From a virus (lineage: Duplodnaviria > Heunggongvirae > Uroviricota > Caudoviricetes): a stretch of 20,059 bases of DNA. The DNA lies in the IMG/VR virus record IMGVR_UViG_2734482785_000006, positions 1 through 20,059 of that record. One strand, written 5' to 3'. Both the position numbers and the translations under genes were made by a program. The notes under the pieces are model-generated. The model was not told the origin of the DNA, made no database searches, and saw nothing but the letters and a program-made list of their open reading frames with translations. Numbering within the stretch: position 1 is the stretch's first letter; every line of letters starts with the position of its first letter. Below are positions 2,017 through 13,415 of this stretch, one piece after another.

Positions 2017-2208
2017 TTAAAATCCTGCCGGGATTTCGTTATTATCCTGGTGAATAACTTTATCGACCGGATAACAGTTGCCTGTAATTTTCTGTTCTGT
2101 TGCTGCTGCCATACATTCCTGCATTGTTCTGTGAACACTGACTGCAATATCAACTGGCTCTCCGGAAACAAGAAAAACCGTCAGAATAAGTGCAAATACT
2201 GGATTCAT
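2017..2208 (-). CDS. Small protein (63 aa) with N-terminal hydrophobic/signal-like segment, YdfD-like by position and size
   Basis: ATG at 2208..2206 with AAGGA Shine-Dalgarno 8 nt upstream; start overlaps the dicB stop in an ATGA arrangement; product MNPVFALILTVFLVSGEPVD...; sits immediately downstream of dicB as ydfD does in Qin. Confidence 0.5.
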   Translation of the reverse strand: MNPVFALILTVFLVSGEPVDIAVSVHRTMQECMAAATEQKITGNCYPVDKVIHQDNNEIPAGF

Positions 2209-2393
2209 TGTGCACATCCTTTTGGCATCAGACGTAAACGGGCCAGCATTGAAACAATGCATACTTTATTTAATAACTCCCGTTCGAGTTTTCTTTTGTT
2301 AATGGCCTCTTCAGTAAATACAGGATTACTGATAGTGACACCAATTTCAAAACAACCTTCAGACGTATTAACGTTTGGTAATAACGTTTTCAT
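2205..2393 (-). CDS. dicB: Cell division inhibitor DicB (62 aa)
   Basis: ATG at 2393..2391 with GAGGG upstream; product MKTLLPNVNTSEGCFEIGVTISNPVFTEEAINKRKLERELLNKVCIVSMLARLRLMPKGCAQ matches recalled Qin DicB nearly residue for residue; located just downstream of DicF. Confidence 0.8.
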   Translation of the reverse strand: MKTLLPNVNTSEGCFEIGVTISNPVFTEEAINKRKLERELLNKVCIVSMLARLRLMPKGCAQ

Positions 2394-2562: not shown

Positions 2563-2620
2563 AAAAAGGGCGGCAGAGCAGTCACGGAGTAAAACTGATA
2601 CCGCCAAACGTCACCAGAAA
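2563..2620 (-). ncRNA. dicF: DicF small regulatory RNA (antisense regulator of ftsZ and other targets) with its 3' terminator
   Basis: Reverse complement of 2563..2620 reads TTTCTGGTGACGTTTGGCGGTATCAGTTTTACTCCGTGACTGCTCTGCCGCCCTTTTT, which matches the DicF sequence as I recall it, including the GC stem and U-tail; correct position upstream of dicB. Confidence 0.8.
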
Positions 2621-2953
2621 ATTGATAACAGATGGCGTTGCAGCGGGGTTGTCACTTAAGCGTATGGTCAACCTGACAACCCGGTGTCCTCAACGGGGAA
2701 GAAATAACCCCGCCATACTTACCGCCGCACCATTTCGCGGGTTGCCACAACCGGAAGCGCACGGTCGACGAAAATTTAACGAAAGGCTATCTATGAACCA
2801 GCTACCTCGCCGTGCGCTTTCGCGTTATGGCTGACTTTTCAGGGAAATATCCTTTCAGTAAACTGTCAGTGCCGGATGCTCACCCGTGTCCGGCGCACGT
2901 ACTCCACCTCACCCGTGGAGAACTCCTTAATCACCAACCCTCAGGAGGGTGAA

Positions 2954-3229
2954 ATGTCGACTGAAAATGATGAAATCATTAACTCCCTGATACGCCAGAT
3001 TAATAATTTTGATAAAGCATTGCAGCATGCTGCGGCGCGTAGTGATATAACTCTTTTAGCAATTTCATTTCTTGCATCTGTTATGGATAAAAATGAAGTC
3101 GTACGACAGAGTCCTGTTGATTATATCGACTCGCTTCAACCCGGCACTTTCAATCATGAGAGCTTCAATCATGAGAAAGAGCATGTTAAGTCTGTAATTA
3201 ATTCTCTTATTTTGAATCAAAAGAATTAA
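2954..3229 (+). CDS. Hypothetical protein (91 aa), AT-rich accessory gene inserted in the early-left operon on the opposite strand
   Basis: ATG at 2954 preceded by strong GGAGGG Shine-Dalgarno; protein-like composition (MSTENDEIINSLIRQINNFDKALQHAAARSD...); contains a 15-bp tandem duplication encoding FNHESFNHE; no family recognised. Confidence 0.5.
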   Translation: MSTENDEIINSLIRQINNFDKALQHAAARSDITLLAISFLASVMDKNEVVRQSPVDYIDSLQPGTFNHESFNHEKEHVKSVINSLILNQKN

Positions 3230-3527
3230 TGCTTTTTGTTGCAAAGTAATTTTCAAGTGGTTCTATTCGAATCCCTTTCTTTTTCATTAACAAGCCAAAC
3301 CCCTTATCAATGATGTCCATTAGATCCAGGAAGTATTTTTCATGTAAATCCTGGTTATCAGAGAGCTGCTTCTCTTCGTACAGACCGATAAAGGCACGAC
3401 GCACGTTACCGGATATAGTATCGATGGTTTCTTTTTCTACGGTACTCAGGTCAAGAGTCGCCAGTTGGGAACGAACTATATTCGCTGCCATTTCCTGGAA
3501 TTGCATTGGTAAATCTTTAAATTCCAT
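3207..3527 (-). CDS. Hypothetical protein (106 aa), AT-rich, acidic/basic mixed
   Basis: ATG at 3527..3525 with GAGG upstream; product MEFKDLPMQFQEMAANIVRSQLATLDLSTVEKETID...; 3' end overlaps the convergent plus-strand gene by 23 bp; no family recognised. Confidence 0.5.
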   Translation of the reverse strand: MEFKDLPMQFQEMAANIVRSQLATLDLSTVEKETIDTISGNVRRAFIGLYEEKQLSDNQDLHEKYFLDLMDIIDKGFGLLMKKKGIRIEPLENYFATKSINSFDSK

Positions 3528-3549
3528 TATTAGCCTCGTTGGTTAGCTA

Positions 3550-3768
3550 TTAACGCGGGTATGTAATCATTCTGGCAATGCTTAATGCCGCTGCTTTTTC
3601 CAGCCTGGTGATATCCTGCTCCAGAGCGGACAGATTTTCAGCCTGCTTAGCCCTGGCTTCATTGGCCCATTTCAGATCCTGAGCTGCATTAATTTTCTGG
3701 CGCATCCACTCATAAAGTTCATCATCGGTATAGTCTGGCGCGATGATGACGGGTTCTCGTTTCTGCAT
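3550..3768 (-). CDS. Hypothetical early-left protein (72 aa), ydfC-like by size and position
   Basis: ATG at 3768..3766 with GAGGA 8 nt upstream (the track start at 3783 is a TTG); product MQKREPVIIAPDYTDDELYEWMRQKINAAQDLKWANEARAKQAENLSALEQDITRLEKAAALSIARMITYPR; first gene downstream of the PL-like promoter. Confidence 0.5.
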   Translation of the reverse strand: MQKREPVIIAPDYTDDELYEWMRQKINAAQDLKWANEARAKQAENLSALEQDITRLEKAAALSIARMITYPR

Positions 3769-3949
3769 AGTGATTCCTCGCAATGCTGTTTCCCCTTAAC
3801 GCCGGGGTGGCGGAACAAAGACCTGCTGCATAGTTAAAGTTGAACCCTGCCGTCATGTTCATACGCCTCGGGCTGGCTACTTAACCCCTGACCACTGCCG
3901 GGTAACTCGAAGTATTGCCCTGCATTCTGTGGGGCGGGGTGGGTTGGTA

Positions 3950-3996
3950 TTTGTAGTTTAATAAACATTAAACTCAAGTCAAGTAAAAACTAAACC
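3950..3996 (-). promoter_or_regulatory. PL-like early-left promoter with overlapping operator palindrome
   Basis: On the minus strand: TTGACT (rc of 3977..3982), 16-bp spacer, TAAACT (rc of 3955..3960). A perfect 8-bp inverted repeat AGTTTAAT-aaac-ATTAAACT spans 3955..3974, and an ACTAAAC motif lies at 3989..3995. Confidence 0.4.
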
Positions 3997-4066: not shown

Positions 4067-4345
4067 TTAGGGAAACTGGCGTCTTGCGTGGATCACGTTT
4101 ACTACTTCAACGCTTGATGTTGTTACGCGGTATAGAATTATATAGTTAGGGTGGGCCACAATCTCACGCAAGCCAGGCACCCTGTCGCTTGGTGGGTATA
4201 AATACGGGTGTTCGGATAACGGCAGCACACAACCCCTTAATCGCTGCCATAAGCGTTCTGCCGCATCTATGTCGAAACGAGCAATATAACCAGTTATATC
4301 ATCCAAGTCGGTATCTGCGCTTTCAAGCCATAATACGGGTAACAT
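4067..4345 (-). CDS. parE2: ParE-family toxin (ParE2-like, 92 aa)
   Basis: ATG at 4345..4343, one nt after the antitoxin stop; product MLPVLWLESADTDLDDITGYIARFDIDAAERLWQRL...YIILYRVTTSSVEVVNVIHARRQFP has the RelE/ParE fold signature and matches recalled ParE2 of E. coli O157 prophages in size. Confidence 0.75.
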   Translation of the reverse strand: MLPVLWLESADTDLDDITGYIARFDIDAAERLWQRLRGCVLPLSEHPYLYPPSDRVPGLREIVAHPNYIILYRVTTSSVEVVNVIHARRQFP

Positions 4346-4346
4346 T

Positions 4347-4538
4347 TTACTGCTTGCTCCGTTCCTTGCGCATTTTAGCAAAGCGTTCTGCCATTCTGCG
4401 CTCAACTTCGTCATGAGGAATTGCTGGGCGCGGATCTGCAAGGCTCGTTGCTACTTTCGCACGCAGCCATTCGTTGTAACTGTTTTCTTGTTCAATGGTT
4501 TCAAACTCAGAAACCATTGGTGAAAGGGCTCTATTCAT
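4347..4538 (-). CDS. paaA2: PaaA2-like antitoxin (63 aa)
   Basis: ATG at 4538..4536 with GGAGG 7 nt upstream; product MNRALSPMVSEFETIEQENSYNEWLRAKVATSLADPRPAIPHDEVERRMAERFAKMRKERSKQ; size and position upstream of the ParE toxin fit PaaA2. Confidence 0.7.
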   Translation of the reverse strand: MNRALSPMVSEFETIEQENSYNEWLRAKVATSLADPRPAIPHDEVERRMAERFAKMRKERSKQ

Positions 4539-4558
4539 GTTTCCTCCGGTTTTATAAC

Positions 4559-4930
4559 TCAGGCGCGGCGGCATTTTTGCGCCGCAATCCATCTCGCTAT
4601 GAGGTCTTCCATTGATTCTTTTTTCTGCTTTAACTCGCTGATTATCTGGCGTTGCTCATCCTCAGGGAAGGCTGAAAAAATCTGCAATAATTCCAGTTGA
4701 TTAGACGTTAACCCTGCATGTGGTGGAGAAACCTCCGGTTGTTCTGCGTATTCCGCATCCAGATACCCTTCCGGCATCCCGTATGTTTGCTCTATTCTTC
4801 TGGCAGCCTTTTCTCCAAACGAGGCTCTCCCACTCATTAGTTGAGATAGGTAGCTCTTCTCTTTGGGTGGCAGAGTTTTATCTTTAAACCACTCCTTGAG
4901 ACGTAAACGGCGAATTTCTTTTTTTTGCAT
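4559..4930 (-). CDS. paaR2: HTH repressor, PaaR2/DicA/CI-like (123 aa from ATG 4930; alternative GTG start at 4993)
   Basis: Product MQKKEIRRLRLKEWFKDKTLPPKEKSYLSQLMSGRASFGEKAARRIEQTYG... with C-terminal LELLQIFSAFPEDEQ motif resembling DicA-type repressors. No Shine-Dalgarno before ATG 4930 but a TTGCTT-17bp-GATAAT promoter ends 7 bp upstream, consistent with a leaderless mRNA as for lambda cI. Confidence 0.7.
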   Translation of the reverse strand: MQKKEIRRLRLKEWFKDKTLPPKEKSYLSQLMSGRASFGEKAARRIEQTYGMPEGYLDAEYAEQPEVSPPHAGLTSNQLELLQIFSAFPEDEQRQIISELKQKKESMEDLIARWIAAQKCRRA

Positions 4931-4939
4931 GTGGTAATT

Positions 4940-5020
4940 ATCTTTAGTAATCACTAAACAAGCAAATACTTGACTTAATGGTTTATTAAACACTAAACTC
5001 GCAAAAAAACACTAAACCGA
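4940..5020. promoter_or_regulatory. Divergent OR-like promoter/operator region between repressor and cro-like gene
   Basis: Three direct copies of CACTAAAC (4952..4959, 4991..4998, 5010..5017), a TTTAGT-aatc-ACTAAA palindrome (4943..4958), and a rightward TTGACT (4970..4975), 18-bp spacer, TAAACT (4994..4999) promoter; the leftward promoter for the repressor is described under that gene. Confidence 0.45.
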
Positions 5021-5027
5021 GGAAGGT

Positions 5028-5330
5028 ATGACATTAAAAGAGTTTATTAAATCATTGAGAGTTGGTGATGCTAAGAAATTCGCGGCCAGACTTGGTGTAT
5101 CGCCATCTTACTTATCGCAAATGGCGTCTGGACGAGCAGCTATATCTCCAACCCGCGCCCTTATGATCGAATCTGCGACGGAAGGCCAGGTAAGTAGGGC
5201 GGAGCTACGACCCCATGATTGGGAGCTTATTTGGCCTGAGTATGCGAGCGGCATTCGTTTGGGGCAAACACATGTAGTTCATGCTGAAGGTGATTGTAGT
5301 GCATGCTTATCTGATGGAGTTGATTCATGA
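5028..5330 (+). CDS. Cro/YdaS-like HTH DNA-binding protein (100 aa)
   Basis: ATG at 5028 with GAGGAAGG Shine-Dalgarno; product has HTH core FAARLGVSPSYLSQMASGRAAISPTRALMIESATEGQVSRAELRPHDW typical of the YdaS/Cro family; divergent from the repressor gene. Confidence 0.7.
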   Translation: MTLKEFIKSLRVGDAKKFAARLGVSPSYLSQMASGRAAISPTRALMIESATEGQVSRAELRPHDWELIWPEYASGIRLGQTHVVHAEGDCSACLSDGVDS

Positions 5331-5752
5331 AAATCAAGCATGAACACATCCGCATGGCGATGAATGCCTGGGCACATCCGGACGGCGAGAAAGTACCGGC
5401 TGCAGAGATTACCAAAGCGTATTTCGAACTGGGAATTACGTTCCCGGAACTGTATGACGACAGCCATCCGGAAGCCCTGGCACGCAATACTCAGAAAATT
5501 TTCCGCTGGGTGGAGAAAGACACCCCTGATGCGGTTAAAAAAATTCAGGCGTTGTTACCAGCTATCGAAAAAGCAATGCCACCTCTGCTGGTGGCCCGAA
5601 TGCGCAGCCATAGCTCAGCCTATTTTCGGGAACTAGTGGAGACGCGGGAACGACTGGTGAGAGACGCTGATGATTTTGTCGCAGTGGCGATCGCTGGTTT
5701 CAACCAGATGAATCGTGGTGGCCCTGCAGGAAATATTGTGGCTGTGCATTGA
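5327..5752 (+). CDS. ydaT: YdaT-like (CII-like) protein (141 aa)
   Basis: Start overlaps the previous stop (ATGA); N-terminus MKIKHEHI... matches my recollection of Rac YdaT; position after the cro-like gene. Confidence 0.6.
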   Translation: MKIKHEHIRMAMNAWAHPDGEKVPAAEITKAYFELGITFPELYDDSHPEALARNTQKIFRWVEKDTPDAVKKIQALLPAIEKAMPPLLVARMRSHSSAYFRELVETRERLVRDADDFVAVAIAGFNQMNRGGPAGNIVAVH

Positions 5753-13138: not shown

Positions 13139-13169
13139 TTGACCAGACACATTGTCCGGGGCTATATTC
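13139..13169 (+). promoter_or_regulatory. PR'-like late promoter (qut region expected here)
   Basis: TTGACC (13139..13144), 17-bp spacer, CTATAT/TATATT, immediately after the Q stop; followed by a CGCCAG-caaaat-CTGGCG hairpin (13176..13193). Confidence 0.4.
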
Positions 13170-13230
13170 CTCACGCGCCAGCAAAATCTGGCGTCGGGAT
13201 TAGGAACCCCGGATAGAGACCGCGACAGAT

Positions 13231-13255
13231 ACACGCCGCGAGCGTGTTTTTTATT
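13231..13255 (+). terminator. tR'-like rho-independent terminator
   Basis: ACACGC-cgcga-GCGTGT stem-loop followed by TTTTTTATT, about 90 nt downstream of the late promoter. Confidence 0.55.
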
Positions 13256-13415
13256 GTCGTATGCACGCGCACATCTGAATTATGGTGGGGCGTATGGGGG
13301 AGCTGAAAGGCTCGCCGGTTGGTTTCCCGGTAGTTCCTAACCCTGTACGTCTCACCACCCGATGATTAGGAACCTGACGGTGGTGATAGTTTAGAAACCA
13401 CTAGAGGGCGTCATT

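Follow-up and report, generated by a model that had tools for sequence, protein, structure and literature searches.

A variable cargo slot with convergent small genes between ydfC and the dicF leader of Qin-type prophages

The stretch of DNA analyzed here (the window, 20,059 nt) belongs to a Qin-type lambdoid prophage, and sequence comparisons identify the site between ydfC and the dicF leader of its dicBF operon as a recombination hot spot that acts as a cargo slot. In this prophage the slot holds a cassette of two small convergent genes, named A and B here (Table 1). There is about an even chance that the cassette is an allele of a moron-type cargo slot that is coupled to the lytic operon by antisense. 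Accessory hot spots and morons are a known kind of locus; what is unusual is that the alternative cargos share one antisense platform and that each has an obligatory overlap, at its 3' end, with an early gene of modular make-up. Neither sequence nor fold gave a functional assignment for A or B. This is a variable slot in a classic operon, and literature searched by gene names, accessions and topic gave no description of A- or B-type genes or of the ydfC-dicF slot. The published descriptions of dicBF (PMC5069750, PMC10448788) mention neither genes nor a variable slot between ydfC and dicF.

Table 1. Features of the window around the ydfC-dicF slot, and cassette types of the slot
Feature	Position	Strand	Remarks
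Early-left (dicBF) operon		-	order ydfA/ydfB, ydfC, gene B, structured leader, dicF, dicB, DUF1482 gene
dicB	2205-2393	-	cell-division inhibitor gene; ORF and RefSeq annotation of matching locus; downstream in same operon
dicF small RNA	2568-2619	-	Rfam RF00039, 76.7 bits
dicF leader of dicBF transcript	2620-2939	-	conserved, GC-rich; aligns with K-12 and so lies outside the insert
Candidate promoter for A	2836-2864	+	TTTTCA, 17 nt, TAAACT; predicted start about 2870
Hairpin 1 of A leader	2869-2896	+	11 pairs, 2869-2879 with 2886-2896
Hairpin 2 of A leader	2902-2920	+	CTCCAC...GTGGAG; 2902-2907 with 2915-2920
Stem covering ribosome-binding site of A	2923-2947	+	CTCCT (2923-2927) with AGGAG (2943-2947)
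Variable cargo cassette	2940-3529		590 bp; missing from K-12 Qin and most related prophages
Gene A (A1 type)	2954-3229	+	91 aa; ORF; reads against operon
15-bp in-frame repeat in A	3147-3176	+	two copies here; 1-3 in other alleles
A/B 3'-end overlap	3207-3229		exactly 23 bp
Gene B (B1 type)	3207-3527	-	106 aa; ORF; operon-sense early gene
B C-terminal module	3210-3362	-	exchangeable; from variant alignment
B N-terminal module (MEFKDLP...)	3363-3527	-	about residues 1-55; common to many variants
GAGG ribosome-binding site of B	3534-3537	-	in 22-nt spacer after ydfC stop
ydfC	3550-3768	-	72 aa; directly upstream of B; RefSeq annotation of near-identical loci; phrog_1744
ydfA/ydfB	about 3722-3977	-	early-left operon
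Cassette A1 + B1			91 aa + 106 aa; window type; 7 survey loci
Cassette A2 + B2			77 aa + 135 aa; O157 type; 16 survey loci
Cassette A3 + B3			63 aa + 201 aa; third type; 1 survey locus
Cassette A4 + B1			73 aa + B1 of 124 aa; beyond the survey's three types
Cassette A5 + B5			A5 of 100 aa; beyond the survey's three types
Cassette A6 against YdfC fusion			A6 of 76 aa (A4 family); YdfC fusion with B7-like tail; locus L065
Cassette A7 + B7			92 aa (A1 family) + 133 aa; beyond the survey's three types

The operon around the slot is that of a Qin-type prophage, with dicF followed by dicB and preceded by ydfA, ydfB and ydfC, all on the same strand. A locus that is 98.6% identical (L001) is annotated with dicB, ydfC, ydfB and a DUF1391 gene, and a DUF1482 gene was detected downstream of dicB. 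K-12 Qin has the same backbone of ydfA/B/C, a long structured leader, dicF, dicB and the DUF1482 gene (PMC5069750, PMC10448788), and the dicF of the window is nearly identical to the Rfam model. K-12 Qin differs in having an empty slot, with no A, no B and a mutated ribosome-binding site for B. The dicBp transcript is reported as the source from which DicF is processed, and no further promoter was detected within the dicBF operon (PMC10448788). The original prediction took the small early genes of Qin-type prophages to run straight into dicF, which does not hold, since a long untranslated leader separates ydfC from dicF in K-12 Qin as well (PMC5069750). In the window the minus strand of this leader is strongly structured (z = -2.9), and the GC content of 2621-2939 is 53.6%, compared to 49% for the whole window.

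Relatives that lack the insert define its limits. In a three-way alignment with K-12 and an O157 prophage, the junctions of the cassette against K-12 are sharp, and identity picks up again in the ydfC-B spacer. There is extra DNA relative to K-12 Qin, as had been proposed, but it amounts to the 590 bp of the cassette and not to about 900 bp, as 2621-2939 is normal dicF leader. The cassette is AT-rich, with a GC content of 38.0% against 49-54% for the flanks and the window. A low GC content is typical of morons. The segment is not universal in the lineage; it shows a true presence/absence polymorphism, and is missing in K-12 Qin and in 93 of 117 loci. The alignment with K-12 and O157 contains no direct repeats flanking the cassette, and a transposon-like insertion was rejected on this ground; the only match between the two ends is a 6-bp inverted one (ACCAAC/GTTGGT), possibly a chance occurrence.

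Several features point to a loss in the empty lineages rather than to the insertion of the original prediction. Empty-slot prophages retain a 22-nt spacer with the ribosome-binding site of B, in which GAGG has changed to GAAG or AAAG. Alleles that have only B keep the last codons of the A4 gene, and some other alleles have deletions running through the leader. Loss thus seems at least as likely as gain.

A survey of the slot, with the leader and ydfC as anchors, covered 117 loci from IMG/VR and from references. The slot was empty in 93 and filled in the other 24, by the three cassette types counted in Table 1. Seven or more alternative A genes occupy the slot at exactly the same position. They belong to five or more families without detectable similarity to each other, and A1-A7 fall into different PHROGs or none. 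A1 and A4 were considered as distant homologues and rejected (hhalign probability 0.1). Among 5,426 complete E. coli genomes, the A1+B1 cassette was found in 198 and the A2+B2 cassette in 646, and the latter is identical in 599 genomes of many serotypes (STEC). B1 without any A is common, and A genes are often deleted. The site thus has the features of a moron or accessory hot spot, namely presence or absence with sharp junctions, unrelated alternatives and a differing base composition.

Gene A is predicted to be protein-coding, with purifying selection specific to its own frame. It has a strong ribosome-binding site (GGAGGG at 2944-2949, 4 nt ahead of the ATG), and this site, the coordinates of the ORF and the internal repeat are all as originally described. 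Two A1 subtypes differ at 16% of nucleotide positions, and dN/dS between them is 0.30 in the A frame versus 0.68-0.90 in the other two frames. Selection on A may nevertheless be weak, since A is often deleted. The two copies of the repeat, CTTTCAATCATGAGA and GCTTCAATCATGAGA, match at 13 of 15 positions and encode FNHES-FNHEK; Tandem Repeats Finder does not report the repeat at its thresholds. It is a genuine polymorphism, with one, two or three copies giving an A protein of 86, 91 or 96 aa, always in frame.

The A family is close to an orphan by database searches. Among 5.8 billion proteins there are 15 close relatives, all from Escherichia where the source organism is named, and an exhaustive HMM search of 1.84 billion representatives added one distant cluster, P0210, with 37% identity. 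P0210 (locus L210) comes from a prophage that was not found among E. coli genomes. It follows the dicF-leader sequence that also precedes A, and like A it converges on and overlaps the neighboring early gene. A is predicted to be soluble, acidic and helical (AF2 model, pLDDT 65), and its maximum 19-residue hydropathy of 1.43 indicates no membrane helix. A, B and five other cassette proteins had no Pfam, NCBIfam or PADLOC match, and only function-unknown families were found for them in PHROGs. PDB sequence-profile searches with A and B gave nothing below E = 0.2, and no fold assignment was found for either. The two genes thus remain unrecognized, as first noted, after sensitive profile and structure-based searches, and they do not match housekeeping phage families.

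B is a member of a widespread modular family of early genes that often occurs without any A gene. Its start lies 22 nt past ydfC and is preceded by a GAGG site, so B is an operon gene and not opposite-strand cargo. The original description of an opposite-strand gene in a leftward operon therefore applies to A, while B is in operon sense. B matches phrog_6937 (2.9e-69), and its N-terminal 55-66 residues also match phrog_1363, 2151, 9419 and 33007. B-type C-terminal modules are found in frame on other carriers, namely YdfC (L065) and an HTH_3 protein (L210). The AF2 model of B is a three- or four-helix bundle (pLDDT 69), and the maximum 19-residue hydropathy is 0.53, indicating no membrane helix. 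The dN/dS of B is estimated at 0.4-0.8 from just 8-9 substitutions. A profile search with the N-terminal module returned short E. coli fragments only, and among genomes scanned at one per species the module occurred only in Escherichia albertii, along with a weak Xenorhabdus match. A metagenome scan with the C-terminal module found E. coli-type copies only.

A and B converge and overlap by 23 bp, as originally described, and 3'-end overlaps of 11-77 bp occur in every one of the eight convergent A/B pairs examined. No intrinsic terminator was found between the two genes; candidates there and at 3573-3590 were rejected because they fold no better than shuffled sequence. From the convergent geometry and the lack of a terminator, it follows that the A and B transcripts would be mutually antisense. 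None of 30 filled slots had an A gene but no convergent B-type gene, in a search sample for A-only alleles that was limited and partly selected for the presence of B, and six of seven unresolved loci are A1+B1. B-only alleles are frequent. This resembles the situation in which an effector never occurs alone and orphan immunity genes do.

The types of A and B do not vary together one to one, as an effector and its immunity gene would. A1-family genes pair with both B1-type and B7-type tails, A4-family genes do likewise, and the related tails B3, B5 and B7 pair with A3, A5, A7 and A6. The distant A1 homologue with 37% identity opposes a gene with a B1-like C-terminus (45% identity over 29 aa). 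This locus, L210, suggested that A and the C-terminal module of B form a strictly cognate exchange unit, an idea that was then weakened by L065 and L268. The free combination of types weakens the case for a strict toxin/antidote or an obligate cognate pair. A and B also do not resemble a type II toxin-antitoxin system, as they are convergent rather than co-directional and co-transcribed, and there is no recognizable toxin fold or DNA-binding antitoxin. Nor do they have the small hydrophobic membrane toxin and non-coding antisense RNA of a type I system. Homology to known exclusion or abortive-infection proteins was not found in PADLOC, Pfam, NCBIfam or PDB sequences. The pair may still be a new small system or an antisense-regulated switch, as the original prediction had it.

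The part of the dicF leader that precedes A appears to serve as a platform shared by all cassettes. The same leader and ribosome-binding site lie before A1-A7 and the distant homologue. The candidate promoter is the best plus-strand match in the leader (PWM score 10.0) and a moderate one, with 8 of 12 consensus positions; it is below the stock-scan threshold, and about 0.2 such matches would be expected by chance in a sequence of this length. The element is the same in all E. coli cassette types and empty slots, about 90 nt before the start codon, and the best -10 element of the divergent L210 (TATTAT) is at the same distance. The predicted start of the A transcript is the foot of hairpin 1. 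This hairpin has three to four G.U pairs, which in the operon-sense RNA would become A.C mismatches, and pairing is found in 87 of 88 cells for the plus strand and 63 of 88 for the minus strand. Hairpin 2 has two pairs with compensatory changes across cassette types. The stem over the ribosome-binding site is paired in eight of eight cassette types, with U-A changed to A-U on both sides in two of them.

Across the eight cassette types, 97% of cells in the A leader pair and three pairs have changed on both sides, giving a covariation score that was reached by none of 500 shuffles, from eight sequences that represent few independent events. The fold has a z of -3.9, and Rfam at relaxed thresholds has no family for this leader. 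Variants that break hairpin 1 were found in 22 of 91 empty slots versus 0 of 30 filled ones, a difference with p = 0.002 by locus that is not significant by haplotype (p = 0.22). The shared platform, the covariation, the strand specificity of hairpin 1, the position of the start and the distribution of hairpin variants together favor a functional role for the plus-strand RNA as the leader of A. The platform is also kept in empty slots, and may instead serve the dicF precursor RNA or an antisense RNA.

The reading ranked first takes the cassette as independent cargo. A would be an accessory gene of the moron type that a weak promoter of its own expresses in the repressed prophage, and B would be translated from the operon transcript. 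When the operon fires upon induction or infection, its transcript would run antisense through A, and collision or duplex RNA would shut off A while B gets made. The slot would in this way deliver a lysogen-phase product, A, and a lytic-phase product, B, that are mutually exclusive, with a probable role in phage-phage or phage-host conflict or in host modulation. The reading ranked second, which is on the unlikely side, is that A and B are a two-protein conflict module with self-immunity, following the logic of P22 SieB/Esc or BstA/aba. The lysogen would make A, which stops or aborts infection by incoming phages or is harmful in another way, and B, as the first product of the phage's own early operon, would neutralize A and let the prophage still grow. 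An effector and its antidote would be expected to show the asymmetry found here, in which A was not seen without a convergent B-type gene (counting the A1+B1 pairs among the unresolved loci) and B often lacks an A. The 3'-end overlap of all eight pairs, the B1-like C-terminus that again opposes the distant A1 homologue, and the B-type tails that remain in frame on YdfC and the HTH protein are also in line with such a module. However, A and the C-terminal types of B are not matched one to one, and physical adjacency alone could explain the linkage. Both proteins are predicted to be soluble helical bundles without catalytic or membrane features, and neither is similar to a known defense, exclusion, toxin or antitoxin family. 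It is also doubtful that the dicF leader is a dedicated antisense expression platform for swapped small effector ORFs, made up of a promoter, a stabilizing hairpin at the 5' end and a stem gating the ribosome-binding site, with each ORF convergent on a modular early gene. The lysogen would then make A, and the lytic program would silence A by antisense and supply the protein partner B, which would be an undescribed class of conflict module with coupling to the lysis-lysogeny switch built in. If true, well over a tenth of E. coli genomes would carry such an expression-platform module, and most STEC lineages would be among them. Should the A genes encode effectors expressed in the lysogen, the slot would offer a compact source, easy to mine, of new small proteins for phage conflict or host modulation, and a natural example of cargo using one regulatory platform.

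The plus-strand transcript could itself be the functional product, driven against the early-left operon by a conserved antisense promoter in the dicF leader, with the A ORFs as passengers of little or no importance, and its antisense action would then damp leaky read-through into the toxic dicF and dicB or stabilize lysogeny. The promoter-like element and both hairpins are kept in empty slots that have no A gene, and the G.U pairs specific to the plus strand point to selection on that RNA regardless of coding content. Without a terminator, the RNA would run antisense over B and ydfC, and the frequent loss of A genes also fits. This would add an antisense layer to the control of dicF and dicB, but it is rather improbable and ranks third, as the low dN/dS is specific to the A frame and every allele, with the 15-bp copy-number variants among them, has an intact ORF. 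Moreover, a strong ribosome-binding site with a covarying stem over it precedes every A type, the A1 family is still recognizable at 37% identity in a distant prophage, and variants that break hairpins are confined to empty slots. The least probable explanation, and one that would be surprising, is that the cassette is a neutral leftover from mosaic recombination between prophages in decay, with A and B now lacking any function. Such an origin would suit a prophage family that is often defective, with many deletion derivatives and a slot that is empty in most loci. It would not account for the purifying selection on A, the identical A2+B2 cassettes in 599 genomes of many serotypes, the fact that each of the eight cassette types has kept its ribosome-binding sites and reading frames, or the compensatory changes in the structured leader.

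Superinfection-exclusion genes embedded in the early-left operon include sieB, with esc, of P22 and lambda, and the sieB of Rac. In P22, sieB and the pL operon share one reading direction, and sieB contains esc. Like A and B, sieB/esc is an accessory function within a pL-type operon that is thought to be expressed from the prophage, and the likeness would extend to a paired phage function that permits escape from the phage's own exclusion. In contrast, A and B are separate, convergent genes with no sequence or fold similarity to sieB/esc, and A lacks a membrane segment. Mention of sieB is made in PMC10883804. The likeness to BstA/aba would be one of concept, that of a prophage defense tightly linked to an element that spares the prophage (PMC8585504). 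BstA differs in being large, and aba in being a DNA element within the gene for BstA (PMC8585504). No homology between these and A or B was found.

Lambdoid morons are defined for HK97 and HK022. The slot is like morons and the antiviral hot spots of P2 and P4 (PMC9122126) in its presence or absence between otherwise collinear prophages, its lower GC content than the flanks, the many unrelated genes that alternate at one fixed position, and the conserved flanks that are recombination anchors. Unlike at those sites, the cargo of the slot is tiny (ORFs of 63-100 aa), has no recognizable defense domain, and is placed within an early lytic operon but on the other strand, with no convincing terminator found. 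The alternatives in the slot also all use one ready-made leader and ribosome-binding site, and the 3' end of every A gene overlaps that of a modular operon gene.

Prophages whose slot between ydfC and the dicF leader is empty still retain the spacer of the gene B ribosome-binding site, in which GAGG has become GAAG or AAAG. The comparison suggests that the empty state, that of K-12 Qin included, is a product of cassette loss. The last codons of A4, one of the alternative gene A types, remain in alleles that have only gene B (TAATGATTAATCGA), and in other alleles the leader and 5' half of A4 are deleted (L124, L228 and L254 compared). Decay of the slot proceeds by repeated deletion. At window positions 2869-2896, the hairpin-1 stem in the putative gene A leader RNA is broken by point changes in 22 of 91 empty slots (in K-12, for example, GTGCCGG is changed to GTTCCGG) and in none of 30 filled ones, a difference that is not significant when haplotypes are counted.

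Two other loci carry related genes. L210, from a prophage for which E. coli genomes gave no match, encodes a gene A relative (37% identity) preceded by the same dicF-leader sequence as in the window. It is convergent with a gene for a 214-aa HTH_3 protein, the last ~30 residues of which are similar to the C-terminal module of B1, the gene B type in the window. A Cox-like gene, an HTH repressor and an integrase lie beside this pair. In L065, loss of the ydfC stop codon extends the reading frame through a B7-type C-terminal module. The product is a fusion of 136 aa that lacks the MEFKDLP module; convergent with its gene is a member of the A4 family that starts with TTG.

The 15-bp unit of gene A is present in one, two or three copies, depending on the allele (window, L161 and L145 compared). 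It encodes SFNHE, and all copy-number variants are in frame. A 78-aa ORF lies antisense within gene B and has no ribosome-binding site. Its retention in related loci is accounted for by gene B conservation alone, and the ORF is probably spurious.

Features of the window and of the loci compared with it
Feature	Locus	Position	Strand	Remarks
15-bp unit of gene A	window	3147-3176
Gene B RBS spacer	window	3530-3549
Gene B RBS spacer, empty slot	L002	2540-2560
Last A4 codons	L124	3900-3960
Gene A relative region	L210	1-2160
ydfC-B7 fusion	L065	slot region	reverse
78-aa ORF	window	3310-3546	+
ParE-family toxin	window	4067-4348	-
PaaA2-type antitoxin	window	4347-4538	-
Regulator-like gene	window		-	123-144 aa; directly upstream of ParE/PaaA2 pair
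Trio of the three preceding genes	window	4067-4993	-
YdaS-like (HTH) and YdaT-like genes	window	5028-5752	+
isrK	window	within 13162-13362	+	Rfam, 69 bits
C4 antisense RNA	window	within 13162-13362	+	Rfam, 66 bits
a1/b1 target of C4 antisense RNA	window	within 13162-13362	+	Rfam, 48 bits

The ParE/PaaA2/regulator-like trio lies to the repressor side of the early-left promoter, where lambda has rexAB. The regulator-like gene has no Pfam match; the trio looks similar to paaR2-paaA2-parE2, a three-gene system known from O157 prophages. The YdaS-like and YdaT-like genes lie right of the immunity region, at the cro/cII position. The isrK/C4/a1-b1 cluster is, as judged from its Rfam matches, an antisense control unit of the P1/P7 type; it lies in the late-regulatory region of this lambdoid prophage.
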